A DNA stretch of 64,000 bases, taken from contig CAIVJR010000005.1 of the NCBI GenBank assembly GCA_903906305.1, positions 83,667-147,666 of the forward strand, read 5' to 3'. This stretch comes from an uncultured bacterium (lineage in GTDB: Bacteria; Patescibacteriota; Dojkabacteria; SC72). The translations under genes and the position numbers were made by a program. Below are positions 19,105 to 39,684 of the stretch, piece after piece (the first letter of the stretch is position 1; every line of letters starts with the position of its first letter). The notes beneath the pieces were generated by a model that worked only from the letters and a program-made list of their open reading frames with translations, was not told the origin of the DNA and searched no databases.

Positions 19105-19134
19105 TCGACAAATACACCCCAAATTAAGTATAAT
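19105..19134 (+). promoter_or_regulatory. promoter of the 7TM/ATP-grasp operon
   Basis: TCGACA, 18 nt, TATAAT, 40 nt upstream of 19175. Confidence 0.45.
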
Positions 19135-19174: not shown

Positions 19175-19849
19175 ATGACCTATACACCTTTTACTCAATG
19201 GATGATTACGACTGGAGTACCACAACAAGTATTGGAATTGCTACTAGCTGTAATGATTGTAGCAACAATTGTAAGCATAGCTAGATATATAATTGGATCT
19301 AAAACATATGGAATATATGCACCAATAATATTGGCAATCGCATACTCATATACAGGTTTAAGATATGGATTAGCAATAACCTTGATAGTGATTTTGACTA
19401 CCCTACTCTCATACACCATACTACGAAGAGTACGTATGCATTACATAGCTAGAATAGCAGTAAATTACTGTCTGTTAGCTATAATGTTAGTAGTCTTCTT
19501 CATAGTCATAGGACAATTTGGTTTTGGTTTAGACAATATGGCAAATATCTCTGGACTTGCAGCAATATCAATTGCAGCACTTTCAGACTTCTTCATAAAA
19601 CAATATGTAAAGAAATCATTTAAATCTTCTGTCTTGATCCTCTTTAGCACTGTTTTCATTGCCACACTCGGATGGTTTGTCATAACCCGAGATGTCATAA
19701 CAACATATTTCTTAAACAACCTTTGGATTGTTCCAATCTTAATCATATTGAATATCCTCATTGGGCAGTTTACTGGCCTTAGAATCAAAGATCTCTTTAG
19801 ATTTAAATCAGTTATTCAGAATAAGGATAAAGATAATGTTCAGAAATAG
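19175..19849 (+). CDS. 7-TM membrane protein of the type usually fused to an inactive transglutaminase (7TM_transglut-like)
   Basis: Polytopic. IGSKTYGIYAPIILAIAYSYTG resembles the family signature as I recall it. First gene of the ATP-grasp operon, the known partner context. Confidence 0.6.
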   Translation: MTYTPFTQWMITTGVPQQVLELLLAVMIVATIVSIARYIIGSKTYGIYAPIILAIAYSYTGLRYGLAITLIVILTTLLSYTILRRVRMHYIARIAVNYCLLAIMLVVFFIVIGQFGFGLDNMANISGLAAISIAALSDFFIKQYVKKSFKSSVLILFSTVFIATLGWFVITRDVITTYFLNNLWIVPILIILNILIGQFTGLRIKDLFRFKSVIQNKDKDNVQK

Positions 19850-21293
19850 GATAAAAGATGTATTAGGACTAAACAGACGTAATCAAGAATACGTTCGTCC
19901 ATACAACCACCCAAAATCTAAAGCGTTAGCAGATAATAAGATTGCTACAAAAAAGCTTCTTGCAAAGGAAGGTATCAACACATCTGAGGTATACAAACTC
20001 ATTAAAAATCGTAAACAACTAGCCTTCTTAGATTGGGAATCATTACCAAAAAGTTTTGTAATCAAACCTAATCAAGGTACTGGTGGAAATGGAATTCTAG
20101 TAATCTATGGTAGAAAGAGGGGCGAATTAGCATGGATAAGGCCAGGCGGAGAAGTATTAAGTAAAAAAGATCTCTCCTTACACATTGAGAATATCCTCGA
20201 AGGAAGATTTTCAATGGGTGAAAGAAGCGATATCGCAATAATTGAAGAAAGAGTTAGAACTGATTCATTCCTAAAACAATACTCATACAAAGGTGTACCC
20301 GATATTAGAATCATATGTTTCAATCTCGTCCCCATTATGGCAATGATGCGAATACCTACCAAACGATCCAACGGTACTGCAAATCTACATTCTGGAGCTA
20401 TATGTACCGGTATAGACATAGCAACAGGCATAACCACCTACTCTATGCATATGAATAGCAAATCATTGTTGAGCGATACATATGAGATGATAGATAATAC
20501 TCAAGATTTGAAGATTAACAAAAAGCTTTCAGGTGTTCAGATACCTGATTGGGACAAGATCTTGGATATTGCAGTAAGATGCCAAAGAGCAAGTAAGCTT
20601 GGCTATACAGGTGTCGATATAGCATTAGACGCAGACAAAGGCCCTATCGTTTTTGAATTAAATGCTAGACCTGGCCTTGGAATCCAAGTCGCAAATCAAG
20701 CGGGTTTAAGATGGAGATTAGAAAAAGTAAAAGGATTGGAAGTGAAGAGTATTAAACACGGTATAAGGGTAGCGAAGAATCTGTTTGGTGGAGAAGTAGA
20801 AGACAGTATTGAAGCTATTAGTGGAAGAAAGGTTGTTAACATCAACGAGAAAATAACCCTGTATTACAAATCATACAAAGAAGGTAGCAAAAATGAGAAT
20901 AAAGACAGAGAGATTACTACCGCATTTGTAGATACAGGAGCTATAACCTCCCGTATCTCTCGAAGCTATGTATCCAGAATGGGATATTTCGAAACCATGA
21001 GACAGTTTGACTATCTAAAATGCCCTAAGAACTTCCTCGCTTTTAAGGATGCACAAGAATACATAGACGAATATAGTAAAAACATGACAGAGGATGCATA
21101 CATCATACGTTTAGCTAAAATCTTTGAGGATGGGCAAATAGTTGTCCGACCTGTTATCATTGTTAAAGTAAGAATATCAGGCGAAATACGTGATCTTGAA
21201 ATGATCGTAACTGAAGATAGTACACACTCTGTCACATTAGGAAGAAACGACCTCAGAGACTATTTAATTGATACAAGTAAAACATTTAAATAA
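19836..21293 (+). CDS. alpha-L-glutamate-ligase-related ATP-grasp enzyme fused to a C-terminal retropepsin-like aspartic protease
   Basis: ATG 19836 (MFRNRIKDVLGLNRRNQEYVRPYNHP...) overlaps the upstream gene by 14 nt. ATP-grasp core (VIKPNQGTGGNGI, GYTGVDIALD, FELNARPG). C-terminal FVDTGAITS, VVRPVIIV and VTLGRNDLRDYLID form a DTGA protease module. Confidence 0.7.
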   Translation: MFRNRIKDVLGLNRRNQEYVRPYNHPKSKALADNKIATKKLLAKEGINTSEVYKLIKNRKQLAFLDWESLPKSFVIKPNQGTGGNGILVIYGRKRGELAWIRPGGEVLSKKDLSLHIENILEGRFSMGERSDIAIIEERVRTDSFLKQYSYKGVPDIRIICFNLVPIMAMMRIPTKRSNGTANLHSGAICTGIDIATGITTYSMHMNSKSLLSDTYEMIDNTQDLKINKKLSGVQIPDWDKILDIAVRCQRASKLGYTGVDIALDADKGPIVFELNARPGLGIQVANQAGLRWRLEKVKGLEVKSIKHGIRVAKNLFGGEVEDSIEAISGRKVVNINEKITLYYKSYKEGSKNENKDREITTAFVDTGAITSRISRSYVSRMGYFETMRQFDYLKCPKNFLAFKDAQEYIDEYSKNMTEDAYIIRLAKIFEDGQIVVRPVIIVKVRISGEIRDLEMIVTEDSTHSVTLGRNDLRDYLIDTSKTFK

Positions 21294-22282
21294 TGAAAAC
21301 ATACGAAGAATATCTAAAAGAAGCAGGAAATGTCCATTTAGCATACTATGTCGAAGCTGCTGACATCTTAGGAATCAAATATTCCATCGTTGTTAGAAGC
21401 CTAATTGCAAAGTTCGAAGTTGAAGACAAGCATTGGTTCATTATAAATACTGTTACACCCCTAACCTCCTCCCCAAGTGCTACCATTTCAAAACGAAAGA
21501 ACCTTACCAATATGGTATTAAGCTCATATGGTGTAGATGTCCCAAAGCAAGAGGGATTAACAAGCCCCATTGATGCTATAAAATTCTTTAATAAGTATAA
21601 AAACATAGTCATAAAGCCTGCTCAACAGCTTGGTGGAAAAGGTATTACCCTACTTCCAGAGACAGAAGACCAGGTTATATCTGCTTTCAACGAAGCATTC
21701 GAGAAAGATAGATCAAAAGGAGAAATTAAGGTATTGGGAGAAGAATTCATCAAAGGAGAAAACTATCGATTCTTAGTAGTTGGCGAAAACGTTGTTGGAA
21801 TAGTATGGAGAAAGGCCCCAATAGTTATCGGCAATAGCAAAAATACTATAAGAGAACTAATTGATACATCAAACAAAGAGCGTAGCCTCCTCGTTCTCAA
21901 ATCTATTCCCATAGATTCAGAAGTACAAACTAGATTAAAAAATGCTGACCTCACATTAGATTCAATTCCAGACGAAGGCCAAGTTATAACCCTTAGATAC
22001 AATTGTAATCTGACTACTGGTGGTACTACAGAAGAGTGTGCTTCCATTGTAGATCCATACTACAAGGAGCTCGCTGTAAAGGCCGTTAAGGCTCTTGATT
22101 TAGAATTCGGGGGTGTAGATATCATTGCAGAGGATATAACTAAACCAGGGAAGTGTGGAATTAATGAAATCAACTACAATCCTGGATTAAGATTACATTA
22201 CAAAGCTGACAAGGGTGAGAAGGTTAAGGTCGCTGTCCCTATTATGGAATATATTAGAGATAAGTATACAAATAAATTATAA
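21293..22282 (+). CDS. ATP-grasp ligase, cyanophycin-synthetase G-domain-like
   Basis: IKPAQQLGGKGIT, GENYRFLVVGENVVG, RYNCNLTTGGTTEEC, GGVDIIAEDITKP and EINYNPGL. Start shares 1 nt with the upstream stop (TAATG). Confidence 0.65.
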   Translation: MKTYEEYLKEAGNVHLAYYVEAADILGIKYSIVVRSLIAKFEVEDKHWFIINTVTPLTSSPSATISKRKNLTNMVLSSYGVDVPKQEGLTSPIDAIKFFNKYKNIVIKPAQQLGGKGITLLPETEDQVISAFNEAFEKDRSKGEIKVLGEEFIKGENYRFLVVGENVVGIVWRKAPIVIGNSKNTIRELIDTSNKERSLLVLKSIPIDSEVQTRLKNADLTLDSIPDEGQVITLRYNCNLTTGGTTEECASIVDPYYKELAVKAVKALDLEFGGVDIIAEDITKPGKCGINEINYNPGLRLHYKADKGEKVKVAVPIMEYIRDKYTNKL

Positions 22283-22292
22283 GATAAACATT

Positions 22293-23984
22293 ATGAGTAA
22301 CGTGCAAGTATTACAAGGCCTAAATCTAGATTCAGAGATATCTGTCATAAAAATTAATGTACATAAGACCGATACTATCGTTAGATATCTTGAACTTCTT
22401 AAAAATTTTCACCCAATATTCATGCGTGAATACAAATTTGAAAATGACATCTTAAGCATTCACACAATGATAACCTCGTTGTGGAGAGAACTTGGAGAAA
22501 TAATAATCAAACTTTCAGAAGGAAAGATCGATTACGAAGAAGCAAGAAAACACACTCTTGAAGAAGTCCTTAAACAACGAGTAGCCTCTATGTCTACTAT
22601 TCCTCTAATCTTTTTTGCAAACAAAATGAAATATGAGGTAACACCAACGCTATTAGAAGACGAAAGGATAAAATACAATACAGGGCCCAATAGAATATAT
22701 ACTTTAGGCGTAGGTCGTAATTCCCAAATTATATATTCTATATCCTCTAGTAAAGATTCTAAAGAAGCAAAAGAAATTCAAAGAGATAAATATCTTACAA
22801 ACCTTATGATTCAGCGATTAGGTCTCCCTATTCCAAAATGGCAAGTCCTAGACAATATATCACAGATTGAAGAAGTCTGGAGTAGCTATGAAAAACCTGT
22901 CGTCATAAAACCAACAGGTCTTACAGGTGGGCATGGTGTTGTAGTTGGTATAGAAACGCTAGAGAAAGCAAAGGAGGCATTTAAATTTGCAAAAGAAGCA
23001 ACTCAGGATAGAATCAGAGAAGAATGGCAGCAAAAGATCATGATACAAGAACAAATCTCAGGTGAAGATTACAGGCTTCTCGTTATAAATGGCCATCTAG
23101 AAATCGCAACCAAGCGTATTCCAGCCTTCATCATAGGAGATGGCAAGCATACAATTGAAGAATTGATCGATATAACCAATACAGATCCTCGAAGAGATGT
23201 TACTAACCCTACTCATACATTAAAACCTATTAAGATTGATGATCCTCTAAAGTCATATATCAAAGATCAGAAATTAACCCTTACCTCTATTCCTAAGAAA
23301 GAGCAGAAAGTTAATGTGAGAAAGGTTGCAAGCATGAGCCAAGGCGGCATAACCGAAGATTTTACGGATAAGGTAAGCCCAGAAATTAAAGCAATTGTAG
23401 AGAGCATCGCATCATCGATTCATGCATTTACTCTAGGGGTCGATGTCATGTGTAAAGATCTTTCCAAACCATTAACAAAAGACAACGGTGCAATACTAGA
23501 AGTGAACACAATGCCTGAAGCATATCTTAATACCTATCCTGTCATTGGTGAATCCCGAGAATACGTATTCGACAAATATATAAAAGCTCTTTTAGAAGGC
23601 AATAACACAAAGCAGATAGTAATTGTAGGTAATAGCACAGAAGATGTACCTACTCTACTAAGAAAGAAATCGATCTTTGGATCATACCTCAAACAAGATG
23701 CCGTTATCGGAGAATACAAAGATGGAGAGATTAGAATTAATGGGTTGGATATAAATAAGGGCCTAGAGAAATGGAAAGCAATAGAAGGCCTTAAAGTAAA
23801 TGCATCTTTAGATGCAATGATCATACATCATAGAAATGTAGAAGAGGTTAGAGAAACAGGCTTAGGATTTAATAAAATTGACCTTTTAATGGTAGAATCT
23901 AAATATTTTGAAGATAGAGAATTTAAAAAAGCTATCCGAAGATACCAAATGAAAGGATTAATATCTAAAATAAAGAAATTCTAA
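22293..23984 (+). CDS. cyanophycin-synthetase-like protein (N + ATP-grasp domains; M domain reduced to a degenerate stub)
   Basis: ATG 22293 (MSNVQVLQGLNLDS...). CphA-like order: N-domain, then STIPLIFFANKM...LGVGRNSQIIYSISSSKDSKEAKEIQRDKYLTNLMIQRLGLPIPK, then VIKPTGLTGGHGV, GEDYRLLVINGHL, RKVASMSQGGITEDFTD and LEVNTMPE. The C-terminal ~130 aa begin QIVIVGNSTEDVPT where a Mur-ligase P-loop would sit. Confidence 0.65.
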   Translation: MSNVQVLQGLNLDSEISVIKINVHKTDTIVRYLELLKNFHPIFMREYKFENDILSIHTMITSLWRELGEIIIKLSEGKIDYEEARKHTLEEVLKQRVASMSTIPLIFFANKMKYEVTPTLLEDERIKYNTGPNRIYTLGVGRNSQIIYSISSSKDSKEAKEIQRDKYLTNLMIQRLGLPIPKWQVLDNISQIEEVWSSYEKPVVIKPTGLTGGHGVVVGIETLEKAKEAFKFAKEATQDRIREEWQQKIMIQEQISGEDYRLLVINGHLEIATKRIPAFIIGDGKHTIEELIDITNTDPRRDVTNPTHTLKPIKIDDPLKSYIKDQKLTLTSIPKKEQKVNVRKVASMSQGGITEDFTDKVSPEIKAIVESIASSIHAFTLGVDVMCKDLSKPLTKDNGAILEVNTMPEAYLNTYPVIGESREYVFDKYIKALLEGNNTKQIVIVGNSTEDVPTLLRKKSIFGSYLKQDAVIGEYKDGEIRINGLDINKGLEKWKAIEGLKVNASLDAMIIHHRNVEEVRETGLGFNKIDLLMVESKYFEDREFKKAIRRYQMKGLISKIKKF

Positions 23985-23985
23985 T

Positions 23986-24933
23986 ATGAAATACCTCATC
24001 ATAGACAAAAGACAGCGTGTAGAAGTAGCTACAATGGGTGAAATACCTACAGGATCAGCAAGATTAGTAGAAGAATTAGATAAAAAAAATATTCCTCATG
24101 ATTTTGCATATAACGATGAAATAGAGTTCTTGTTTCATAATGGTTCCACGGTTATAAAAGTGGCAGGACATGACGTAACAGAGTACAGCAACATCATTCT
24201 TAGAGGTCATTCCTTAGGTGACGAACGTGAGTATCAATACAAGAGATTCATCATAGACTACGTTGATCAATATAATAGAGACAACCCAGAAAAAAAAGTG
24301 ATCATTCAGAATTCTAAGGCAATCAAGAATCTTCCATATTACAATAAGATAGCCTTTGCAATGCTATGTTCAAAAAATAACCTCCCCTACTTTAATACAT
24401 ATTTCCATACCAATGGGGAATATTTAAAAGATAGAGATATGTTAAAGGAATATCCATTGATTATCAAAGAATACTCGGGAATGAATAGAACTGAAATGAT
24501 TGAGGGTAAAGAGAAGATCAAGAAGAATGTGTTTAAATTAGAGAAAGATGAGGATTACAAGCAAGAAAATCTTGATGGACAAGATCTTTCCCATTTCTTC
24601 ATACAGGAATTTTCTGATGCTGGTGAAGATTACAGAATATTTGTTAAGTTAGGGAAAGTAATAGCCGGATGGAAAAGAAAGGCTGTTAATGGCTTTATGA
24701 CTGTAAGCAAGGGTGAGTACGAGATGTACAATACTCCTAACGAGGAGATAACTGAGATTGCTGAGAAGATGGCATCCGTATTAGAAGCTGACTTTATGGC
24801 CGTAGACTTTATGTATATGAATGGGAAGGCATGTATACAAGAGATAAGCTTCCATCCTGGATATAAGGCATATGAGACTAAGATTGAGGGAGAGCCAGTG
24901 AATATAGCTGAAGCTATAGTTACTGCTTTTTAA
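23986..24933 (+). CDS. RimK-like ATP-grasp ligase
   Basis: LIIKEYSGMNR, GEDYRIFVKLGKVIAGWKRKA, ADFMAVDFMYMNGKACIQEISFHPG. Starts 1 nt after the upstream stop. Confidence 0.6.
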   Translation: MKYLIIDKRQRVEVATMGEIPTGSARLVEELDKKNIPHDFAYNDEIEFLFHNGSTVIKVAGHDVTEYSNIILRGHSLGDEREYQYKRFIIDYVDQYNRDNPEKKVIIQNSKAIKNLPYYNKIAFAMLCSKNNLPYFNTYFHTNGEYLKDRDMLKEYPLIIKEYSGMNRTEMIEGKEKIKKNVFKLEKDEDYKQENLDGQDLSHFFIQEFSDAGEDYRIFVKLGKVIAGWKRKAVNGFMTVSKGEYEMYNTPNEEITEIAEKMASVLEADFMAVDFMYMNGKACIQEISFHPGYKAYETKIEGEPVNIAEAIVTAF

Positions 24934-27211
24934 GTCCTAGCTTCTCAAACATATTATTACTATCACCATTGTGATCATGTATTGCTTGGGCTTTGTATCT
25001 AGGTAGGACGAATATAAACTTACTTCCCTTACCTATTTCACTCTCTACTCGAATATCACCACCCATCTTACGTATAAGGTTGAAGGTTACGAATAATCCC
25101 AAACCAGTACCACCAGGTCTTACAATCTCTAGCTTCTCACCAACCTCTATGCTGGAGTTAATGTGATTCCCTGCCCTAAAGAATTTCTGTCCCAACTTAG
25201 GTAGCTCCTCTGCACTAATACCATAACCAGTATCAATAATGGATACTTCTACCCAGTTATCATCAAATCTATTCTCTATGGTCACACTACCTCTCTCTGT
25301 ATACTTAACAGCATTACTTATTAGGTTGTTCAATATCTCTACCACTCTAGCCCTATCTGCATATACATGAGGAGTATCTAATTGCATATTATTAATAATT
25401 GGAAGATCTTTTTCCATAGCATCTCTCTCATTCCCATGTATAGCCATATCTACCTCATTCTTAATATCTACCTCTTCAGGATCTATGACTATCTTATCCC
25501 CCTCTAATTTAGCACTACTCAGTAATGTATTAATTAGTTTTATTTCATTCTCTACAGCCATCTTAATCCTATCTACATACCTCTTGTATGCTTCAGGATC
25601 ACTCTGTATATCCCCTGTGAACTTCTCTAAGAGCTGTGCATTGAGTTTAACTATGGTAGCAGGTGTTCTTAACTCATGTCCCATTATATCAATCATATCG
25701 TTCTCTTTCTTACGAGCTTCCTGTAGTTCTTGAATCTTAACCTGAAGTTCTGCCGTCTGCGCATCAACCTTATATTGAAGGGTCTGATTGAAGGATTGAA
25801 GCTGCTTGTAAAGAAGGGCCTTATTAACAGAAATATGGAACTGGCTATATATACGATCCCAAAGATCTAATTCATCAATCTTGTACATCTGATTATTAGG
25901 TAGGTCTTGTATGAAAAGAACCCCTATTAGCTCACTCCCAGATACAATTGGATAGACTATTTGAATTTTAGATAACTCTAACAGATACAACAAATTAGAA
26001 TACTCTCGATATTCTAATGCATCTTTGTTACTCAAATACTCTAGCTCAGATCTGGAAAGAGATTTTAATCTTCCTACTGTAGTCGTTTCTTTATTCCAAT
26101 ACACTGGAATCTCTACAAAAATTTTATTAAGGTTTTCTATCTTCCAATCTCCATGAGTAAAACGATATGATTTTGTATTAACAGAGTCGTAAAGATATAT
26201 TTGAGCTTTGTTTGCAGAAGTATTTTGGCATATATAGCTCAAAGTCTTGTTACATATATCAGAAAGTTCTTGCTCAAAGTTAAGAAGTTTAATAAAGCCT
26301 TCACCCTTGTTTCTAAGGATCTGTTTTTCTGACAGGAAAATGTTGGCAACAGCATCTATAACTATTTTAAAAATAAGTGCTAACAAAAACGCAATTATGT
26401 AAAACAATATTTTAGGAATTTCCAACTGCTCAATTAGTGGGAAAACAACTACCAAAGAAACTACAAATACGATAGATGGAATAATGTAGAGAGATAAACT
26501 TCGCAAAATACCCCGTATCACAATCCCAAATCGTTGGAACCGTGTCTGTGTTAGACCATACGAAATAATAAGGTTTGCGATTGAGAATACCACAGGCCCA
26601 AACCAAATATATTCATAAACACCAAAGTATGGAGCTATGATATTAGCAGGGAAAGAACCCACTACTGTTAAAACATTTCCTATAATTAGATATTTTTGCT
26701 GTTCTTTCTCTATAAATGATAATGCTTTATACCCTCTTAAAGTTTTGTAAACATTAACTGCAAATACGATTGTTAACCATGCCATCCAGACCAGATATGC
26801 TTTACCAACTATTATATAGTTATTCCCTTCTAAGACAATTCTTTCTATAAAATTGTTTGTAAAGAATATTTCGTAAAGGAGAAAAAGAAATCCCCCTACT
26901 ACAAACAGAGCAAATAATAAATTGATCTTCTTTCTACGAAGATAATACGTAGAGAAAATATAATGGAACAGACCAATTGATATTGATGATAAATAGATAA
27001 TATCCGCCCAAAGTTTAGCGGTACTTAATGTATCTGTTAATAGAAAAGATACTGTTGAGAAAGCCCAAACCGGTCCAGCTATTATTCCCAAAATTCCTAA
27101 GAAAAAATATGCCTTGTTCTTTGGTTCTTTGAGAAAGGTAACTAAAGGCCCTATTAAGGAGGTAAACCCTAGTATTACAACAAACATATATAAAGTGTTA
27201 TCCCATATCAT
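24920..27211 (-). CDS. sensor histidine kinase with N-terminal multi-TM sensor and GAF-like domain (orphan)
   Basis: About 8 N-terminal TM helices, a coiled coil, H-box MGHELRTPAT, N-box LNNLISNAVKYT, G1 DTGYGI and G2 GGTGLGL. No response regulator in the window. Confidence 0.9.
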   Translation of the reverse strand: MIWDNTLYMFVVILGFTSLIGPLVTFLKEPKNKAYFFLGILGIIAGPVWAFSTVSFLLTDTLSTAKLWADIIYLSSISIGLFHYIFSTYYLRRKKINLLFALFVVGGFLFLLYEIFFTNNFIERIVLEGNNYIIVGKAYLVWMAWLTIVFAVNVYKTLRGYKALSFIEKEQQKYLIIGNVLTVVGSFPANIIAPYFGVYEYIWFGPVVFSIANLIISYGLTQTRFQRFGIVIRGILRSLSLYIIPSIVFVVSLVVVFPLIEQLEIPKILFYIIAFLLALIFKIVIDAVANIFLSEKQILRNKGEGFIKLLNFEQELSDICNKTLSYICQNTSANKAQIYLYDSVNTKSYRFTHGDWKIENLNKIFVEIPVYWNKETTTVGRLKSLSRSELEYLSNKDALEYREYSNLLYLLELSKIQIVYPIVSGSELIGVLFIQDLPNNQMYKIDELDLWDRIYSQFHISVNKALLYKQLQSFNQTLQYKVDAQTAELQVKIQELQEARKKENDMIDIMGHELRTPATIVKLNAQLLEKFTGDIQSDPEAYKRYVDRIKMAVENEIKLINTLLSSAKLEGDKIVIDPEEVDIKNEVDMAIHGNERDAMEKDLPIINNMQLDTPHVYADRARVVEILNNLISNAVKYTERGSVTIENRFDDNWVEVSIIDTGYGISAEELPKLGQKFFRAGNHINSSIEVGEKLEIVRPGGTGLGLFVTFNLIRKMGGDIRVESEIGKGSKFIFVLPRYKAQAIHDHNGDSNNMFEKLGLKKQ

Positions 27212-28700
27212 TGTTCTTTGGCAGTTTTAATTCAAAAAATCTTGTTAAACTCATTTTCCTCTCTTCGTATGGTGGGTAATAAGAGCCTTCAATTCCTGTT
27301 AGCTCCAAGGTTTTCATTCCTGTCTTCCTTAGATCTTGAGCGATCTTTGGTGCTAGCTTCTTAGTTATTGCCCCAGCCTTCTTTGCCCCCATTAGATATC
27401 CCCAGAAACTGTTAAAACCTAATTTTTTTCTAACTTCAGCTAGAAGTTCATACTGCATAGTCGAAGATGGCGAAAAGAGTTGATTGATAAACGAAATCCC
27501 ATTTTTTTCTTTAATACTATATTCTGTATCTCCCAACTTAACATTTTTCTCAAAATTTTCTTTCTTTGTGAAGAAAATTGTCTTCAACATGCTCCCTGTA
27601 GAAAGATCAACTTGCATTCCAGGATCCAATGTACAATCTTGAAAAAGTCCTCCTGGTTTAACTCTTTTAACCATCTCGTCTACGACCTCAAAGTGAGTCT
27701 TCTCATCAAAATAGTTTATCCCGTTATCCGAAAATACAAAATGGTATGTATCATCACCCTTCTGCATAGATTCCAGAGCTGTTTCAAAATATATCGTTAC
27801 CCCCTCAAAATTCTTTTCTTTTTGCCCACTATCCAAAACAATTCGTGTAGGGATACCTCGCAAGGTTAACAACGTAGCTGCACAAATAACAGATTGAAGA
27901 GAGTTATCGGCAGAATGAAACTCAATTTTCTTTCCAGTCTCTTTAAGAGCCTCGTACATTAATGCTGTTGTGATGCCCGCACCGGTACATAATTCCTTAA
28001 CTTTGATTACTTCTTCTCCAGGAAAAGCCTCTTTCATATGATCTCTTGCCTTGGGAGCCATAATCCTTTCTAAACGATATGATTCATAGGCCAAAAGTTT
28101 GTTTAATATCCCTTCAATATTTGATTCCTCCCAATGCATAGATCTTTCCGTACTTTCATCTACGCCATTAGAAAAAAGTTTAGTTGTTTCTTTAAGTAAT
28201 TTTGGTATTAATTGATTAGACATTATTCGAATAGTTGCAGGAGCAAAAACAAATGGATTTTTTGGGTTCATGTATTCCCATTCAGCATAATTGGCATACT
28301 TTTTATGCACATCCATAAAAACAGGGACAAACTCATTTTGAGCATCTCGGACTTCAGCACTTATCTCTGTTGGAATCTTAATATACAAACCGTATTCGTC
28401 TGATCCTAACATCTTTAAATCAAGATCTTTTGGATCCTGAAGGTTAGAAATTTGGGCGTTTTCTTCATTTGTAGCTATTTGTGTCAAATAATTTGTTAAT
28501 GAAGGTAATTGCGAGATATTCTCTTCTGACTGTATTGGCTCATCTGCTGGGACTACAACTTCAGTAGTTACTGGAACGTTTGAAATTTCTTCCTGGGGTG
28601 GTTGCAAAGGAGAATTGGTTTCAACTTGCAAAGACATACCTTCACTCTCTAGTGGTGGTTTGTTATCCATTCTTATTTGGGCAATATTATGTATATACAT
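27198..28700 (-). CDS. hypothetical protein with class I SAM-methyltransferase-like core and a P/Q/E-rich N-terminal region
   Basis: ELCTGAGITTALMYEAL (motif I-like), IEFHSADNS, and VKRVKPGGLFQD (post-III/IV-like). The N-terminal ~110 aa are low complexity. An alternative start is ATG 28670. Confidence 0.5.
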   Translation of the reverse strand: MYIHNIAQIRMDNKPPLESEGMSLQVETNSPLQPPQEEISNVPVTTEVVVPADEPIQSEENISQLPSLTNYLTQIATNEENAQISNLQDPKDLDLKMLGSDEYGLYIKIPTEISAEVRDAQNEFVPVFMDVHKKYANYAEWEYMNPKNPFVFAPATIRIMSNQLIPKLLKETTKLFSNGVDESTERSMHWEESNIEGILNKLLAYESYRLERIMAPKARDHMKEAFPGEEVIKVKELCTGAGITTALMYEALKETGKKIEFHSADNSLQSVICAATLLTLRGIPTRIVLDSGQKEKNFEGVTIYFETALESMQKGDDTYHFVFSDNGINYFDEKTHFEVVDEMVKRVKPGGLFQDCTLDPGMQVDLSTGSMLKTIFFTKKENFEKNVKLGDTEYSIKEKNGISFINQLFSPSSTMQYELLAEVRKKLGFNSFWGYLMGAKKAGAITKKLAPKIAQDLRKTGMKTLELTGIEGSYYPPYEERKMSLTRFFELKLPKNNDMG

Positions 28701-28723: not shown

Positions 28724-29893
28724 CTATATCCCCGCCTTCTCAAATATTTCTAACCATTTATCTTTGTTTGGTACGTTATTTGGCATAGGTAATAACCCAT
28801 CCTCTACCCATTCACACTGTTTAAATGTAATCTTTCCCGCATACAATTGGTTATACAATCTAGGATTCTCTTCCAATTTCTTCTTAACTTTTCTAAATCC
28901 TCTAAAATATGCAATATCTTTACAATATATTCCTCGATCATGTGTATCCCCCAATCCTCTTTTAACACTATATGTAACATCAAATGCAGAATACTTAGGT
29001 AAAACAGCCAAAAGAACATTGTAAAGCTCTCTAAAGGAAAGATCTTCACCTAGATATACAGCCCATGTTAATGCTGCTTTGTTCTTCAACCATTTCTCTG
29101 TAAGAAGACCCATATTACTCTCATTCCATGTAGCCAAACCCTCCTCAACATCCAAATATTCAGGAAGATTAGCATTACTCAAAGCATTGAACCCACATTT
29201 CATACCATTTTCCGCTCTTAAAGCATGGGTCCCAACCTCGTGTACTAAAGTTTTTCGTAATTTGAAATTACTTCTTTCAATATTGGAATCCACCAAAATC
29301 TCTTTTCGTTTAATACCAAGCTTAATTCCATTTTTTGAAATATTTGCAGATTCATTTACAGTCCAACCATCTAACCCTAGCTCTCTGAAAGTAATGTCAA
29401 ATACTTTTTCAATATCATCATGATACAAAATCTTCCTCCTATTTATATCATCCTCCTTTACCACGTTGTAGTTATCTAACTTTCCTCTCAGTACCCTAGC
29501 CGCATTCCTAAATAGCTTGTCACTAGGTTTACCATACCTATGTACAGAAATATCAGTAACCTCTTCGTTATTACCAACCGCATACATAAGGTCGCTGGCT
29601 TCCTTTTTTGAATCAATTAACTGAAGGTAGAAATCAGAAATGCGAGGATCCACATCAACAATCTCTTTAACATTAGAAAGTTTCTTCAATATCTCTTTGT
29701 TATTATTCTTTACAATCCTGTATTCAAATACCGGATTGTATATCTCGCTATTAAAGAATTTCTTCTTCTCTGCTTCTAAGTTTGTAGGTGTAAATACTAA
29801 TGCAGTCGGTATCCTCAAATCACCAAGTAGCTTAGTAACTTCATCAAGCCTTAATGTCTTCTTTTTTCTAGCAAATATTTCCATGGGATACAT
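28724..29893 (-). CDS. DUF1704 / MATCAP-family zinc carboxypeptidase-like protein
   Basis: HEVGTH (HExxH) followed by YLDVEEGLATWNE (the family QEGLA motif) and KRGLGDTHDRGIYCKDIAYFRG. Confidence 0.65.
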   Translation of the reverse strand: MYPMEIFARKKKTLRLDEVTKLLGDLRIPTALVFTPTNLEAEKKKFFNSEIYNPVFEYRIVKNNNKEILKKLSNVKEIVDVDPRISDFYLQLIDSKKEASDLMYAVGNNEEVTDISVHRYGKPSDKLFRNAARVLRGKLDNYNVVKEDDINRRKILYHDDIEKVFDITFRELGLDGWTVNESANISKNGIKLGIKRKEILVDSNIERSNFKLRKTLVHEVGTHALRAENGMKCGFNALSNANLPEYLDVEEGLATWNESNMGLLTEKWLKNKAALTWAVYLGEDLSFRELYNVLLAVLPKYSAFDVTYSVKRGLGDTHDRGIYCKDIAYFRGFRKVKKKLEENPRLYNQLYAGKITFKQCEWVEDGLLPMPNNVPNKDKWLEIFEKAGI

Positions 29894-29917
29894 TATATAT
29901 GTTAGAGAAGATTAAAA

Positions 29918-30937
29918 CTATCTCCTAAAATCTCTGTTAAATGAGAACTTCCTTGAGCCCTCTTCTATGAGGTCTAAAGCAATACCAGTACCTTTTACTA
30001 CACAAAAAAGAGGATCATCTGCGACATGAGCAGGCACACCTGTAGCACGAGAGAAAAGTTTGTCTAAATTTCTTAGCAAGGATGTACCACCACTCATGAC
30101 CATACCACGATCCATAATGTCAGCAGATAGCTCTGGAGGAGTCTTTTCTAATACTGCTTGTATACTCTTAATTATACTCCTCAATGGCCACTCTACAGCT
30201 TTAGCAATATCATTGGAATTAACAATTACTGATTTAGGCATACCAGCTCCAACATCTCTTCCCCTTACTTCCATCTCCCTTGGATCTTTTACCTCTAATG
30301 CACTCCCTATCTTTATCTTTATCTTCTCAGCTGTCTGTTCACCAATTAAAAGGCCTTTCTTTTTACGCATGTATGAGATTATGGCCTCATTAATAGCGTC
30401 ACCTGCTACTCTTAGAGATTCATATTCTACTACTCCGTCAAGGGATATAACCGCGACTTCGGTGGTACCACCACCCATATTTATAATCATATTTCCAGAT
30501 GATGTATTTATTGGCATCTCCGCACCCAATGCAGCTAACAGAGGTTCTGGGAGTAATGTAACATTCCTTGCACCAACCGCATTTGCAGCTTTAAGTACAG
30601 CTCTTTCTTCTACAGAAGTAATACCTGCAGGTACACTAATTACAACATCAGGTTTGAAAAATCTTCCTTTTCCCAATGCTTTGTCAAAGAAGTATCTAAG
30701 TAAAGCTTCAGTTACTCGAGAATCAGCTATGACACCATTACGAAGAGGTCTTTTGGCAACGATATTATCTGGAGTCTTACCAATCATTTCTTTAGCTTCC
30801 ATACCTACAGCTATGACAGTGAAGTTGTTTACATCTATGGCCACAACGGTAGGTTCAGTTAAGACAATCCCTTCCCCTTGGACAAATACAACTGAGTTAG
30901 CTGTTCCTAGGTCTATACCTAATTTCTTTACAAACAT
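29918..30937 (-). CDS. MreB-like actin homolog (copy 2, paralog)
   Basis: LGIDLGTANSVVF, NMGGGTTEVAV and MSGGTSLLRNLD. Shorter N-terminus than copy 1. Confidence 0.9.
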   Translation of the reverse strand: MFVKKLGIDLGTANSVVFVQGEGIVLTEPTVVAIDVNNFTVIAVGMEAKEMIGKTPDNIVAKRPLRNGVIADSRVTEALLRYFFDKALGKGRFFKPDVVISVPAGITSVEERAVLKAANAVGARNVTLLPEPLLAALGAEMPINTSSGNMIINMGGGTTEVAVISLDGVVEYESLRVAGDAINEAIISYMRKKKGLLIGEQTAEKIKIKIGSALEVKDPREMEVRGRDVGAGMPKSVIVNSNDIAKAVEWPLRSIIKSIQAVLEKTPPELSADIMDRGMVMSGGTSLLRNLDKLFSRATGVPAHVADDPLFCVVKGTGIALDLIEEGSRKFSFNRDFRR

Positions 30938-30975: not shown

Positions 30976-31977
30976 TTAAAATTTCAACTTCATTGCCTCT
31001 TTCATCTGACCAGCAACACCAGTTGCTATACCGGCTACCTTAACACTTCCCTCTAATGCTTTCTTCATCAATTCTTCTTTCATACCTTCAGCTTCTCTTC
31101 TTCTCTCTCTAATTGGAGTTAAGAACTCATTCATAACTTCAAACAATCTTTCTTTAACTTCTACATCCTTTATAGTTCCATTCCTGTATCTCTCTTTCAT
31201 AGCCTCAACTTCTTCAATATCCTTGTCGAACAGATCTAGGTATGTAAATGCAACATTGCCTTCAATCTTACCAGGGTCTGTAGCATGAATTCTTGCAGGA
31301 TCGGTATATACCTTAAATACTTTCTTTCTTAATTCCTCTTCTGTATCAGCAAGATATATTCCATTGTTTAAACTCTTCCCCATCTTTGCATTGCCATCAA
31401 TCCCTGGTACATTAGCCTCAACACCAAACAGAGCCTGAGGTTGGTGTAATATATCTGTCTTGTATGTACTGTTAAACTTTCTTGCCAATACTCTAGTATC
31501 TTCAATCATTGGAGCCTGATCCTTACCCACTGGAACTAAGTCTGCATTAACACAAAGAATATCTGCAGCCTGATGTATTGGATATATGAAGAAGCCCAAA
31601 GGAGTAGAAACTTCCATCCCCTTTTGAGCCATTTCTGTTTTAATTGTTGGATTATGCTGAATCTGTTGTACGGTTGCAAAATTGGCAAGATATATGAATA
31701 TCTCATGGATAGCAGGAACTTCGCTCTGTATAAATATGGTAGCTTTGTTGAAATCAATCCCAGCAGCATAGTAGTCACAAAGGAGTTCTTCAATATTTTC
31801 TCTAACCTTACCCGGATTATCAAAGTTATCTGTCAATGCCTGCACATTCGCTATCTCAATATACTCCTCATATTCATCCTGTAATTTCGCCCTACTTTGT
31901 AAAGACCCAAAATAGTGGCCTATGTGCAACTGACCTGTAGGTCTGTCCCCCGTTAGAATTCTTTTCTTTACTTCCAT
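30976..31977 (-). CDS. trpS: tryptophanyl-tRNA synthetase
   Basis: ILTGDRPTGQLHIGHYFGSL (HIGH) and KMGKSLNN (KMSKS). Confidence 0.93.
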   Translation of the reverse strand: MEVKKRILTGDRPTGQLHIGHYFGSLQSRAKLQDEYEEYIEIANVQALTDNFDNPGKVRENIEELLCDYYAAGIDFNKATIFIQSEVPAIHEIFIYLANFATVQQIQHNPTIKTEMAQKGMEVSTPLGFFIYPIHQAADILCVNADLVPVGKDQAPMIEDTRVLARKFNSTYKTDILHQPQALFGVEANVPGIDGNAKMGKSLNNGIYLADTEEELRKKVFKVYTDPARIHATDPGKIEGNVAFTYLDLFDKDIEEVEAMKERYRNGTIKDVEVKERLFEVMNEFLTPIRERRREAEGMKEELMKKALEGSVKVAGIATGVAGQMKEAMKLKF

Positions 31978-36806: not shown

Positions 36807-38291
<1,485 letters not shown>

Positions 38292-38307: not shown

Positions 38308-39684
38308 TTAAACAATCTTAGGCCCAAATCCCCAATGATGGGCTGCTTTGGCCAATGCGGTATCTGGATGTTCAATAATCCACTGCTCCATATTTCCTCT
38401 GCCTAACGCTACATCCTTTGCCTGTATTACGGCTTCTACACCTGCTTCAATGCCCCATGGATGTCCTAAGACTCCACCACCTACTTGGATTACAATATCT
38501 TCACCTAATTGATACAGCGCTTCAGGAATAGTACCTGGATGTAATCCACCTGAAGCTACATGCCATACGGGTTTCATTCCATACCAGTTCTGTCCTAATG
38601 TCATACTCGTCTCTGGAGTAATATCCAACTGCAAAGTATCTCTAATGAGTTTTGGCTCACCATAATTTTCCATTTTCCCTACAGGAGCTCCACCATGAAG
38701 CGAGTCTACACCTAACATTCTCATGATTTTAGCAGTTACTACCATGGACATAGAAAAGTCTTTGATTTCGCCTCTGTCATACACCCCAGGACCAGACTCT
38801 CTGTCAAAAAGGCTGTGCATCGCCCTATGTGCATGTATTGCCAACCCTGGATTGTGCATCCTCATTGTCTGGATTGCACTAAATCCAGTAGTAACAATAT
38901 CCATCATCATCCATCTCCCTCCCTGTGCCTTTATCTTATCTGCCCTCTGTATCATCACATCTAGATTGGAATGCGTCACATTACATAGGTAGAATTTCTT
39001 TTTCCCCGTCTTCCTTTCTACCTCTCTTTGCACCTTATGTATCAGCTCACATCGATCATCAAAGGTATTGAATGGTAGACTAGTTAGATTTTCATCGTCC
39101 TTAATACCATGATATTCTGCATTTGCAGCAGTAAAAAGTATCTCTGCTAATTTTGCCTGTTCTTTGGCTGTACGTCCTACTTTTGGTTTTGGAACAGTAC
39201 AGAGCAATGGTCCTTCTTCGACTTGTAATAGCTCTCGCATACCCCAAATACCAAACTGTGGACCTTGGAATGCTTGAATAATGCACTTTGGGAAACGAAT
39301 ATCTAAACATCGAAATGCCTTGAGCATCTTCATTCCATCGATATTTCCTACTACTCCTGCCAATATTCCAGACATATTGTCATATTCAAATAGCTCTTTT
39401 TTGTAAGCAATCTTAAACGTCTTGGTATTGTGATCTAAATCAAATGCTATGGCCTTAAGCTTCTCTGCCATCCTTACGCCTGAATCTCGACCAGAATATA
39501 TCTCTGTCCATGTACCAGTAGAGCTTTCTGCAGCACATGCTGCTACTACATCTTCAAATTTCTCCATACCAATACCATCTGCAAGCTCAATATCGAGATA
39601 TGTAATGATGTAATTCTCATCAGGATTCTTAGGTTTCCACCCCTTTGGGGCGATGTAACCGTTGTGTGTAGCTCCAATAACCAT
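38308..39684 (-). CDS. rbcL: ribulose-1,5-bisphosphate carboxylase large subunit, form II/III or III-like
   Basis: GTWTE, KPKVGRTAKE, GIKDDENL (carbamyl-Lys region), HAHRAMH, GGAPVGKMEN, ASGGLHPG and GGGVLGHPWG. The catalytic motifs appear intact. Confidence 0.85.
   Translation of the reverse strand: MVIGATHNGYIAPKGWKPKNPDENYIITYLDIELADGIGMEKFEDVVAACAAESSTGTWTEIYSGRDSGVRMAEKLKAIAFDLDHNTKTFKIAYKKELFEYDNMSGILAGVVGNIDGMKMLKAFRCLDIRFPKCIIQAFQGPQFGIWGMRELLQVEEGPLLCTVPKPKVGRTAKEQAKLAEILFTAANAEYHGIKDDENLTSLPFNTFDDRCELIHKVQREVERKTGKKKFYLCNVTHSNLDVMIQRADKIKAQGGRWMMMDIVTTGFSAIQTMRMHNPGLAIHAHRAMHSLFDRESGPGVYDRGEIKDFSMSMVVTAKIMRMLGVDSLHGGAPVGKMENYGEPKLIRDTLQLDITPETSMTLGQNWYGMKPVWHVASGGLHPGTIPEALYQLGEDIVIQVGGGVLGHPWGIEAGVEAVIQAKDVALGRGNMEQWIIEHPDTALAKAAHHWGFGPKIV

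Follow-up and report, generated by a model that had tools for sequence, protein, structure and literature searches.

A MATCAP/DUF1704-family metallocarboxypeptidase gene of Dojkabacteria and its association with ATP-grasp ligase genes

Main finding

The minus-strand gene at 28724..29893 of the window, by which we mean the whole 64,000 nt stretch analyzed here (contig CAIVJR010000005.1 of assembly GCA_903906305.1, positions 83,667 to 147,666, from an uncultured bacterium of the Dojkabacteria lineage SC72), encodes a bona fide member of the MATCAP/DUF1704 family, as established by HMM search, motifs and predicted fold. Across microbes the conserved partner of this family is the peptide-building ATP-grasp ligases and not the adjoining MreB gene, the link to MreB being confined to Dojkabacteria. 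We moderately favor a reading in which the 386–389 aa zinc-type (HExxxH/EEG) metallocarboxypeptidase is active and cytoplasmic and forms the peptidase arm of a convergently transcribed, expanded Rlo/RimK-like ligase module. The enzyme most likely trims C-terminal, probably acidic, residues off the product of the ligases.

The peptidase and its family

The 389-aa ORF matches the Pfam family PF08014 (MATCAP) with 93.8 bits against a cut-off of 27 (E=1.4e-26), residues 45-369 aligning with profile positions 2-338 of 365, and the DUF1704/MATCAP assignment made in a preliminary description of the locus is thereby confirmed. The sequences singled out in that description, HEVGTH (residues 218-223), EEGLATWNE (residues 250-258) and KRGLGDTHDRGIYCKDIAYFRG, are all present in the product. 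Its statement of the family hallmark as HExxH plus QEGLA has to be amended, although the family itself stands: the correct family motif is HExxxH, as described for TMCP1 (PMC10499314), and the window protein carries EEGLA, as human MATCAP does. The active-site motif is intact, with H218-E219-x3-H223 and E250-E251-G-L-A as the metal and catalytic residues. The EEG(LA) segment, about 31 residues past HExxxH and aligned to that of human MATCAP, is the putative source of the third metal ligand. In a phmmer alignment with human MATCAP (7z5g, E=5.5e-9) HEVGTH is paired with HEIGTH and EEGLA with EEGLA, and downstream KRG..DT and KD..Y motifs are common to both proteins. HExxxH is invariant in 28 Dojkabacteria orthologues and in a diverse 53-sequence alignment; the other motif residues are likewise invariant across the 28 orthologues, as are E251 and G252 among the diverse representatives. 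The true start is likely Met4 at 29884, which is the start of all 386-aa orthologues and would give the window protein the same length.

An AF2 model of the peptidase (pLDDT 83.3, pTM 0.82) was compared with the PDB using Foldseek, and the first five ranks were all human MATCAP (E 2e-8 to 7e-8, probability 1.00, TM 0.53-0.62), with about 18% identity in the structural alignment. M3 and M32 peptidases followed at E >= 0.017. The structural comparison proposed earlier thus agrees with the HMM result. Among NCBIfam models the best match is TIGR02421, the proteobacterial QEGLA-motif equivalog (E=8.9e-33), and since its 114 bits fall below the cut-off of 338.65 and the protein has EEGLA instead of QEGLA, the peptidase belongs to the superfamily yet lies outside that equivalog. 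The TIGR02421 family description presumably names an ATP-grasp neighbor. No signal peptide was detected in the peptidase, which is therefore probably cytoplasmic. To our knowledge no prokaryotic MATCAP/DUF1704 protein has an experimentally established function.

Layout of the locus

Upstream of the peptidase gene on the same strand is mreB2 (29918..30937). The spacing of 24 nt reported for the two genes holds for the longest MATCAP ORF and becomes 33 nt with the Met4 start. Co-transcription of mreB2 and the MATCAP gene, like the operon structure referred to throughout, is deduced from short spacers. A promoter and terminator scan of the window gave fewer sites than shuffled sequence, its sole notable match, ahead of the 7TM gene described below, being promoter-like (11/12, 19105-19134).

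As had been described, the minus-strand gene string (end at 24920) runs 14 nt into the 3' end of a ligase operon with four ATP-grasp genes, the last of which, the plus-strand RimK-like gene, stops at 24933. The MATCAP gene had also been placed back-to-back with this operon; the ends are convergent, but two genes lie between them. These make up a lineage-specific insert (24920..28700, minus strand) and encode, by Pfam, a 500-aa protein with a weak methyltransferase match (27198..28700, minus strand) and a 7TM HisKA sensor histidine kinase (24920..27211, minus strand). Neither gene gave a tblastn match in any other sampled locus, and other Dojkabacteria hold different inserts at the same position (an HD protein, small ORFs, a DprA-like gene, or ThiF and FeeM). 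In the window, 3.8 kb separate the peptidase gene from the ligase operon, which is encoded on the other strand, and both facts count against a partnership with the ligases.

The ligase operon

From its sequence matches the operon would be an expanded Rlo/RimK-like module, composed of a 7TM protein, a RloC-like ligase joined to a retropepsin, two ligases resembling the G domain of cyanophycin synthetase and one RimK-like ligase, all on the plus strand. The first gene (19175..19849) encodes a RloB-like seven-transmembrane protein of 224 aa (7TM_transglut; PF14402, 60.8 bits). The RloB model NF052267 aligns with it over positions 311-507 of 508 only, at 36 bits against a cut-off of 900; the protein corresponds to the 7TM part alone and is missing the inactive-transglutaminase ectodomain of Pseudomonas RloB.

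The second gene (19761..21293, with a likely true start at ATG 19836 that leaves a 14-nt overlap with the 7TM gene) encodes a RloC-like ligase of the ATPgrasp_ST or alpha-L-glutamate-ligase-like type. It matches PF14397 with 218 bits (cut-off 31.4) and falls just below the cut-off of TIGR02291 (289.8 against 314.2 bits). Its C-terminal part (~20766..21290) is a RloA/RimB-type retropepsin-like domain with the DTG motif FVDTGAITSR. A profile of this domain searched against PDB sequences found the RloA structures 9g59 (E=1.8e-6) and 9g58 (E=1.3e-5) and also 2pma, while Pfam aspartyl-protease families gave weak matches, none above threshold. The D-T of DTG and the G of IGR are invariant in 12 orthologues. 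Since the ligase carries the retropepsin at its C-terminus and no signal peptide was found in the fusion protein, this domain is not a secreted RloA, and its location resembles that of the cytoplasmic RimB.

The two genes that follow encode ligases related to cyanophycin synthetase. The product of 21293..22282 resembles the G (ATP-grasp) domain and the GshB-type domain (residues 21-321 against positions 167-471 of the cyanophycin synthetase model NF010623, 204 bits) and also matches the C-terminal domain of GshAB and the NAGGN synthetase model. The product of 22215..23984 has N and G domains and no Mur-ligase-like M domain (residues 160-556 against NF010623 positions 183-567, 247 bits); its likely true start at 22293 gives 563 aa, and orthologues have 555-569 aa. 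The last gene (23986..24933) encodes a RimK-like ligase that reaches the Pfam domain level (PF08443, 32.9 bits, cut-off 21) and stays below the RimK family cut-offs of TIGR00768 (47.5 against 143.4 bits) and PRK10446. None of the four window ligases matched the TTL family PF03133 at E <= 0.01. As such, the analogy previously drawn with the eukaryotic TTL/MATCAP pair is valid on the peptidase side only.

Peptidase and ligase genes across genomes

Genomes were scanned with the single pattern HEIGTH[VIA][LF]R, derived from a 20-sequence alignment, and the resulting sample of 80 loci is biased in that this one pattern misses the proteobacterial HEIETH/QEGLA clade, for which a tblastn search of a plasmid collection compensated in part. 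The conserved neighborhood is evident first within Dojkabacteria. In 19 of 20 informative loci the MATCAP gene and the ligase operon face each other tail-to-tail, often across fewer than 30 nt, although the proteins have diverged by 32-66% and the inserts vary, and in most Dojkabacteria the RimK-like gene is the direct tail-to-tail neighbor of the MATCAP gene. In one Dojkabacteria locus (L019) no ligase cluster was found within 10 kb of the MATCAP gene.

In several other lineages the two enzyme families are joined in one protein. Single ATPgrasp_ST::MATCAP proteins are represented by six cluster representatives at 50% identity, and uninterrupted fusion ORFs of 766-783 aa occur in eight independent genomes; a further ATPgrasp_ST-MATCAP junction (L063) is truncated by the contig end. 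A 7TM_transglut gene is directly upstream of the fusion in seven loci (L050, L067, L070, L072, L076, L078 and L080), and fusions preceded by a 7TM gene were seen in Gracilibacteria, Peribacteria, Altimarinota and others. Ligases of other types are paired with the family as well. A RimK gene (PF08443, 115.7 bits) lies directly downstream of the MATCAP homologue in the Woesearchaeota locus L032, with a similar arrangement in L025 and L058, and Sinorhizobium pSymA carries an FGase-MATCAP-GshB-like operon. Two apparent fusions, of 903 aa in Methanosarcina (L044) and 663 aa in Micromonospora (L079), were rejected as ORF over-extensions in GC-rich DNA.

The archaeal homologues present another picture: in around 40 of 45 sampled loci their neighbors are housekeeping genes (Pth2, RNase HII, CorA, HtpX) and no ligase gene is close by, and therefore the family is not always dependent on a linked ligase. 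This would fit a stand-alone housekeeping peptidase, active for example in peptide turnover, whose position beside mreB2 and the ligases in Dojkabacteria is inherited synteny devoid of functional meaning. The entire uvrA-PEGA-trpS-mreB2-MATCAP-ligases-rplL-rplJ block is indeed syntenic across Dojkabacteria, and the peptidase is encoded on the strand opposite to the ligases, with a hotspot of unrelated insertions in the spacer that separates them. However, we regard this explanation as unlikely, given that the same ligase family, ATPgrasp_ST, is fused to MATCAP in multiple unrelated lineages and that RimK-like and GshB-like ligases are independently paired with it elsewhere, neither of which is expected of an unlinked housekeeping enzyme.

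A literature search found no discussion of prokaryotic MATCAP gene neighborhoods. Iyer et al. 2009 reportedly defined ATPgrasp_ST and 7TM_transglut and may already record the DUF1704 link.

Comparison with known systems

Among the closest known relatives are the human tubulin carboxypeptidases and deglutamylases MATCAP/TMCP1 (KIAA0895L) and TMCP2 (KIAA0895), which have PF08014, HExxxH with EEG(LA) and the predicted fold in common with the window peptidase. Eukaryotic members are metal-dependent carboxypeptidases that act on C-terminal Tyr, Phe or Glu of acidic tails and shorten polyglutamate chains from the C-terminus (PMC10499314). The window enzyme would be expected to share the chemistry known from these eukaryotic members (PMC10499314), taking residues off the C-terminal end of acidic tails. 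The setting differs, in that the window organism has no microtubules and the locus has no TTL/TTLL-family ligase; the partners are instead RloC-like, cyanophycin-synthetase-G-like and RimK-like ATP-grasp enzymes.

The RloA-RloB-RloC system of Pseudomonas aeruginosa resembles the window in encoding together a 7TM_transglut protein, an ATPgrasp_ST/TIGR02291-like ligase and a RloA/RimB-like retropepsin (PMC12239564), and the logic of a ligase opposed by a peptidase would be common to both. Unlike RloB, the window 7TM protein is without the inactive-transglutaminase domain, and unlike the secreted RloA, the window retropepsin is attached to its ligase and without a signal peptide. The window adds three ATP-grasp ligases and a MATCAP-type carboxypeptidase to this set. 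The text of the Rlo paper (PMC12239564) contains no match for 'QEGLA'.

In the RimK-RimB (with or without RimA) system, polyglutamylation of ribosomal protein S6 is governed by an ATP-grasp alpha-L-glutamate ligase, which lengthens the C-terminus with Glu, and a cytoplasmic retropepsin, which takes the Glu off again. The window has a RimK-like gene, yet the protein is far under the family cut-off and no link of the locus to RpsF was found; conversely, the Rim system is without the MATCAP-type exopeptidase and the membrane component of the window module. The QEGLA-motif proteins of TIGR02421 are of the same superfamily as the window peptidase and are likewise found beside an ATP-grasp (GshB-like) gene, as in Sinorhizobium pSymA. 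They differ in often having an N-terminal extension or a fused FGase domain and in pairing with GshB-like and not ATPgrasp_ST ligases. The ATPgrasp_ST::MATCAP fusions, with both enzyme families and the upstream 7TM gene, are a minimal version of the module, whereas in Dojkabacteria the peptidase is a separate convergent gene, the ligase is fused to the retropepsin and three further ligases are present.

Proposed mechanism

We infer that the enzymes are active, what kind of product the ligases make and that the peptidase opposes them. The four ligases would add alpha-linked residues, probably acidic ones (Glu/Asp-rich), to a C-terminal carboxylate, the retropepsin domain would make internal cuts in long chains, and the MATCAP-like enzyme would take one residue at a time off the C-terminus, by which chain length could be set or the product recycled. 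RloA and RimB retropepsins cleave runs of at least 8 Glu, and deletion of RloB or RloC makes up for the loss of RloA, such that the peptidase counteracts the product of the ligase (PMC12239564). Specificity for Glu/Asp in the window module is extrapolated from distant relatives, the peptidase and the ligase scoring under the TIGR02421 and TIGR02291 equivalog cut-offs, respectively. The acceptor may be a free peptide, a molecule associated with the membrane or the envelope, or some protein apart from MreB.

In a variant of the ligase-peptidase partnership the ligases would build neither a protein tail nor a cytoplasmic polyamino acid but a peptide that decorates a glycopolymer of the cell envelope or a lipid-linked precursor. 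Transfer of this product across the membrane, or its anchoring there, would fall to the 7TM protein, and the MreB2 and PEGA neighbors would reflect an envelope theme. Pfam defines PF14397 as 'sugar-transfer associated ATP-grasp', the 7TM membrane protein is the most constant partner, and Pseudomonas rlo mutants have osmotic, morphology and beta-lactam phenotypes (PMC12239564). In several Dojkabacteria the ligase operon encloses genes for a GT4 glycosyltransferase, an alpha/beta hydrolase and a C45/AAT-type acyltransferase, and in several a Wzy_C-like membrane protein gene adjoins the MATCAP gene. However, the glycosyltransferase-type inserts occur in a subset of loci only, the Wzy_C match is just under the Pfam cut-off (30.8 against 31.7 bits), and the peptidase and both fused peptidase domains are without signal peptides and are fused to cytoplasmic ligases. 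We consider this variant distinctly unlikely.

The MreB2 question

The product of 29918..30937 is a full MreB by PF06723 (435 bits) and NF010539 (440.5 bits, cut-off 293), with 43% identity to MreB1 (8099..9154, minus strand). MreB1 is linked to mreC-(mreD)-PBP2 and has around 10 extra N-terminal residues (MKIFDSIWELL...), where MreB2 begins MFVKKLGIDLG. The preliminary description was therefore right in noting a second MreB without the N-terminal extension. The tailing cycle of ligases and peptidase that it proposed is supported as to the ATP-grasp partnership, by the fusions, the recurrent 7TM operons and the Dojkabacteria loci, and is not supported as to MreB.

Directly upstream of the MATCAP gene, mreB2 is found in 14 of the 20 informative Dojkabacteria loci. 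A Wzy_C-like gene splits the pair in five (L012-L015 and L017), and in L022, where the contig extends only ~730 nt upstream, the ORF directly upstream is one other than mreB2. Within the uvrA-PEGA-trpS-mreB2 block the adjacency of mreB2 is conserved no better than that of the plainly unrelated trpS, PEGA and uvrA. No MreB gene adjoins a MATCAP homologue in any of the 61 non-Dojkabacteria loci, all fusion-bearing loci included. MreB2 orthologues end in basic or neutral segments of varying sequence and length (FSFNRDFRR, FVFEKKLS, FTKEISS, YLGANG, NLHIN); acidic or conserved ends, which would be a sign of a tailing substrate, were found in none, in contrast to the acidic tails of RpsF and tubulin. 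MreB2 is a syntenic neighbor and at most a candidate member of the system. A cycle like that of the tubulin code, in which the ligases and the MATCAP-like enzyme would add to and remove from the MreB2 C-terminus, could draw on the close upstream position of this distinct paralogue and on the cytoskeletal polymer that is the substrate of eukaryotic MATCAP (PMC10499314), but with the above findings and no TTL-family ligase among the four it is extremely improbable.

Implications

The result gives no support to a bacterial 'MreB code'. The wider notion of a reversible C-terminal 'tail code' on proteins of Dojkabacteria and the fusion-bearing lineages, with ATP-grasp enzymes adding and MATCAP-type enzymes removing residues on, for example, MreB2, a ribosomal protein or the 7TM partner, seems to us very unlikely; if true, it would give the tubulin code's eraser side a forerunner in prokaryotes, one linked to a writer even before eukaryotes.

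The Pseudomonas RloB/RloC system affects osmotic tolerance, morphology, biofilm and antibiotic resistance (PMC12239564). Repeated fusion or pairing of the RloC-type ligase and the 7TM protein with MATCAP offers a testable model, in which a ligase-built acidic chain is trimmed by an endo- and an exopeptidase, and the Dojkabacteria version adds a RimB/RloA-type retropepsin and three more ligases to the pairing. The small CPR or fusion proteins would be tractable reagents for such a model. The family that includes the eukaryotic tubulin detyrosinase/deglutamylase is already coupled to ATP-grasp amidoligases in prokaryotes, which bears on the origin of the tubulin code.

Assignment of the peptidase to the MATCAP family

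The 389-aa protein encoded at 28724..29893 on the minus strand scored 93.8 bits against Pfam PF08014 (MATCAP, formerly DUF1704; gathering score 27), and a phmmer search of PDB sequences gave human MATCAP as the sole match (7z5g, E=5.5e-9; 7z6s, E=2.7e-8). Aligned motifs of the two proteins are HEVGTH/HEIGTH, EEGLA/EEGLA, KRGLGDT/KRGQTDT and KDIAY/KDQVY. When an AlphaFold2 model (pLDDT 83, pTM 0.82) was compared with the PDB using Foldseek, the best five matches were human MATCAP chains (E 2e-8 to 7e-8, TM 0.53-0.62), while the runners-up, M3 and M32 peptidases, were weaker by six orders of magnitude. The DUF1704/MATCAP assignment made in the preliminary description is thus upheld by both HMM score and predicted structure.

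In 28 orthologues from Dojkabacteria, and likewise across 53 aligned diverse representatives, residues H218, E219, H223, E251 and G252 are unchanged, and nearly all full-length representatives carry HExxxH followed about 31 residues on by (E/Q)EGLA. The metal site of TMCP1/MATCAP consists of HExxxH and an EEG motif (PMC10499314). Both motifs had been recognized previously, although the first has the form HExxxH, not HExxH, and the second reads EEGLA in this protein, not QEGLA. These data show an intact MATCAP-type active-site motif and a MATCAP-type predicted fold. Against TIGR02421, the proteobacterial QEGLA model, the protein scored 114 bits, well under the equivalog cut-off of 339. The gene adds a member to a family that is known and already annotated; public records list orthologues as ‘DUF1704 domain-containing’ or ‘tyrosine/phenylalanine carboxypeptidase domain-containing protein’.

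Gene order in the window

The window is from a Candidatus Dojkabacteria (WS6, CPR) bacterium, the name that the nearest homologues of the peptidase bear. The peptidase gene is third in a tight minus-strand string that starts with trpS (30976..31977) and mreB2 (29918..30937) and continues with genes for a 500-aa methyltransferase-like protein (27198..28700) and a 7TM HisKA sensor kinase (24920..27211); the four junctions are, in order, spacers of 38, 24 and 23 nt and a 14-nt overlap of the last two genes. Convergent with this string, downstream of rplJ-rplL on the plus strand, are genes for a 224-aa 7TM_transglut protein (19175..19849), a 510-aa ATPgrasp_ST protein (19761..21293), two cyanophycin-synthetase-like ATP-grasp proteins (329 aa, 21293..22282; 589 aa, 22215..23984) and a RimK-like ATP-grasp protein (23986..24933). 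The kinase and RimK-like genes overlap by 14 nt at their stop codons. Coordinates, distances and sequence motifs reported earlier were all correct. Judged by their spacing, the genes of each string may be co-transcribed. The top sigma-70-like match in the region (19105..19134, plus strand; TCGACA, 18 nt, TATAAT; 11/12) lies 40 nt 5' of the 7TM gene and is consistent with a putative promoter of the ligase operon's own after rplL.

Elsewhere in the window, one in-frame TAA (37944..37946) stands at codon 111 of the prolyl-tRNA synthetase gene (36807..38276, minus), where relatives encode Glu or Pro; a single substitution turns GAA into TAA, and the remainder of the 489-aa frame is intact. The gene may be a pseudogene, or the stop codon may reflect a population variant or a mistake in sequencing or assembly. 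At 38308..39684 (minus) lies a gene for a homologue of the RuBisCO large subunit (PF00016 and PF02788), which occupies the same position in other Dojkabacteria loci (L001, L002 and L088). The G+C content is raised, to about 0.43 as opposed to about 0.36 elsewhere, in a stretch with two giant ORFs (48164..56038, 2624 aa; 57138..63890, 2250 aa; both minus).

Composition of the ligase operon

As judged from its encoded proteins, the predicted ligase operon is a Rlo/RimK-like module in expanded form. Its 7TM protein matches the transmembrane half of Pseudomonas RloB (NF052267 positions 311-507) but, unlike RloB, is without a transglutaminase ectodomain. The 510-aa protein resembles the ligase RloC (PF14397, 218 bits; TIGR02291 ‘alpha-L-glutamate ligase-like’, 290 bits, cut-off 314) and has a second domain in its last ~175 residues, in which the D-T of D-T-G and the G of I-G-R are unchanged in 12 orthologues. 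The profile of this domain matches the RloA orthologue structures 9G59 (E=1.8e-6) and 9G58 (1.3e-5), deposited with the mBio Rlo paper (PMC12239564), and also 2PMA. What had been noted as another protease in the operon is this RimB/RloA-type retropepsin-like domain fused to the lead ligase. The 329-aa and 589-aa proteins match the cyanophycin synthetase ATP-grasp G domain (204 and 247 bits), the latter reaching into part of the N domain as well; the Mur-ligase-like M domain is absent from both.

RloA and RimB cut glutamate runs of 8 or more, RloC is similar to RimK, and deletion of either rloB or rloC relieves the severe defects of triple rloA mutants, so that the protease counteracts the product of the ligase and membrane protein (PMC12239564). 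The text of that paper has zero occurrences of ‘QEGLA’.

Conservation within Dojkabacteria

Using tblastn and ORF clustering, 23 further Dojkabacteria loci (L001-L023 and L088; MATCAP identity 32-91%) were mapped. The usual order is uvrA(-) PEGA(-) trpS(+) mreB2(+) MATCAP(+) RimK-like(-) CphA-like(-) CphA-like(-) ATPgrasp_ST::retropepsin(-) 7TM(-) rplL(-) rplJ(-). The convergent ligase operon lies within 4 kb of the MATCAP gene in 19 of the 20 loci informative downstream; in most, the RimK-like stop is a few to ~30 nt from the MATCAP stop, and in L019 the operon is absent within 10 kb. On the other side, mreB2 directly adjoins the MATCAP gene in 14 of the 20 loci informative upstream; in five (L012-L015 and L017) a single Wzy_C-like gene lies between the two, and in L022 they are not adjacent. 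Both linkages are similarly conserved within the class, as are those of the clearly unrelated trpS, PEGA and uvrA. Within-class synteny cannot tell the ligase link from the mreB2 link.

The spacer between MATCAP gene and ligase operon is an insertion hotspot for unrelated genes, with contents varying even between close relatives. That of the window (24920..28700, minus) holds the kinase and the 500-aa protein, which have no match in any other locus mapped. Other inserts (L001 11252-13024; L002 11153-11836; L016 1265-1993; L088 11435-15339) comprise an HD protein, three small ORFs, a DprA-like gene, and ThiF with a FeeM-like N-acyl amino acid synthase, the last pair in an 87%-identical relative. 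One Dojkabacteria subgroup (L012 5136-6398, 8568-10814, 12492-13469; also L011, L013-L015, L017) carries a Wzy_C-like membrane protein between mreB2 and the MATCAP gene, and its ligase operon has taken up genes for an alpha/beta hydrolase, a GT4 glycosyltransferase and a C45/AAT-type acyltransferase; this hints at a cell-envelope connection.

Association with ATP-grasp ligases in other lineages

Searched exhaustively with HMMER, 1.84 billion cluster representatives yielded 1551 relatives at E<=1e-3, and six of the best 150 are single polypeptides with N-terminal ATPgrasp_ST and C-terminal MATCAP domains (P0185, P0186, P0245, P0246, P0262 and truncated P0181). Genome loci drawn with one peptide pattern numbered at least 80, with 61 of those listed being non-Dojkabacteria. 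Lineage counts that use record titles, several of which seem unreliable, should be read with care. ‘Binchicken’/TPA MAG titles (L005, L007, L010, L016, L018, L019, many of L024-L084) look taxonomically off: Dojkabacteria-syntenic contigs are titled ‘uncultured Candidatus Saccharibacteria’ and contigs grouping with Woesearchaeota/Nanoarchaeota ‘uncultured Methanosarcinales’.

Unbroken fusion ORFs of 766-783 aa occur in eight of the 61 (L050, L067, L070, L072, L074, L076, L078, L080), and in L063 the junction is cut by the contig end. By title these nine are Gracilibacteria, Peribacteria, Altimarinota, a gammaproteobacterial MAG and other bacteria; they make up nine of the 15 bacterial loci among the non-Dojkabacteria loci listed, and seven have a 7TM_transglut gene directly upstream on the same strand. 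The ligase family fused to MATCAP in these other phyla is the one heading the window's ligase operon. No discussion of prokaryotic MATCAP neighbourhoods was found in the literature searched; Iyer et al. 2009, where the ATPgrasp_ST ligase and 7TM families were reportedly defined, may already record the link.

Among the ~45 archaeal loci listed, mainly Woesearchaeota and Nanoarchaeota, a RimK-like gene directly adjoins the peptidase gene in three (L025; L032, PF08443 115.7 bits; L058), and L026 has a weak RimK-like match ~4 kb downstream. The others neighbour Pth2, RNase HII, CorA, HtpX and similar genes, contexts that favour an unlinked housekeeping peptidase with inherited synteny; the ATPgrasp_ST::MATCAP fusions argue against this reading, which we consider unlikely.

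The proteobacterial clade was sampled by tblastn of a plasmid and chromid collection (115 records). Sinorhizobium meliloti pSymA (L086 5406-9207) encodes, in order, an N-formylglutamate amidohydrolase (FGase), a 628-aa MATCAP protein and a GshB-type ATP-grasp protein (PF02955, 172 bits). A Vibrio sp. HDW18 plasmid (L085 6116-8107) encodes a 663-aa FGase::MATCAP fusion; both cases link a proteobacterial QEGLA protein to FGase. A Pseudoalteromonas record has the MATCAP gene without such partners. In Photobacterium damselae, QEGLA gene RS17025, induced 27-fold at low salinity (PMC10308900), and GshB-annotated RS17020 are consecutive locus tags. Taken with the fusions, the RimK-like and GshB-like neighbours indicate that MATCAP-family peptidases repeatedly occur beside, or fused to, members of no fewer than three different ATP-grasp amidoligase families.

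Functional interpretation

The ligase/peptidase link proposed earlier holds as conserved pairing and fusion of MATCAP peptidases with ATP-grasp ligases, alongside the retropepsin fused to the lead ligase, but not with the MreB paralog as partner. MreB2 is a genuine second MreB (43% identity to the mreB-mreC-(mreD)-PBP2-linked copy, 8099..9154, minus) and, as described, lacks that copy's N-terminal extension (MKIFDSIWELL); its tie to the peptidase is class-level synteny, nothing more.

The same partnership could instead make an envelope-glycopolymer-peptide product. This version, to which we give slightly less credence than to the housekeeping reading, is favoured by the genes inserted in certain Dojkabacteria (GT4, alpha/beta hydrolase, AAT and Wzy_C-like), by the definition of PF14397 as ‘sugar-transfer associated’ and by the phenotypes of rlo mutants (PMC12239564). 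That a protein-tail cycle acts on MreB2 is very improbable, since MreB is found in none of the 61 non-Dojkabacteria loci listed, the mreB2-MATCAP pair is split in one out of four Dojkabacteria loci, the final 8-10 MreB2 residues vary in length and sequence among orthologues and are basic or neutral, unlike the acidic tails on which RimK and the tubulin enzymes act, and none of the window's four ligases is of the TTL family, which confines the analogy drawn with TTL/MATCAP to the peptidase side.

A functional partnership of MATCAP peptidase and ATP-grasp ligases is the reading we somewhat favour, with much less confidence in any particular substrate. ATP-grasp enzymes of the RimK, CphA-G and GshB types activate a C-terminal or alpha-carboxylate and then attach an amino acid. 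MATCAP/TMCP enzymes take off C-terminal residues and shorten polyglutamate chains (PMC10499314). By analogy, the four ligases would build an alpha-linked chain, probably Glu/Asp-rich, on an acceptor; the retropepsin domain would cleave long chains internally, the MATCAP-like enzyme may trim from the C-terminus, setting length or recycling product, and the 7TM protein may be anchor, sensor or exporter. In fusion-bearing lineages the MATCAP domain appears to stand where the retropepsin does in Pseudomonas. The system is of the RimK/RimB-Rlo kind, and what is new in it is the retropepsin-ligase fusion, three extra ligases and a MATCAP-type exopeptidase.
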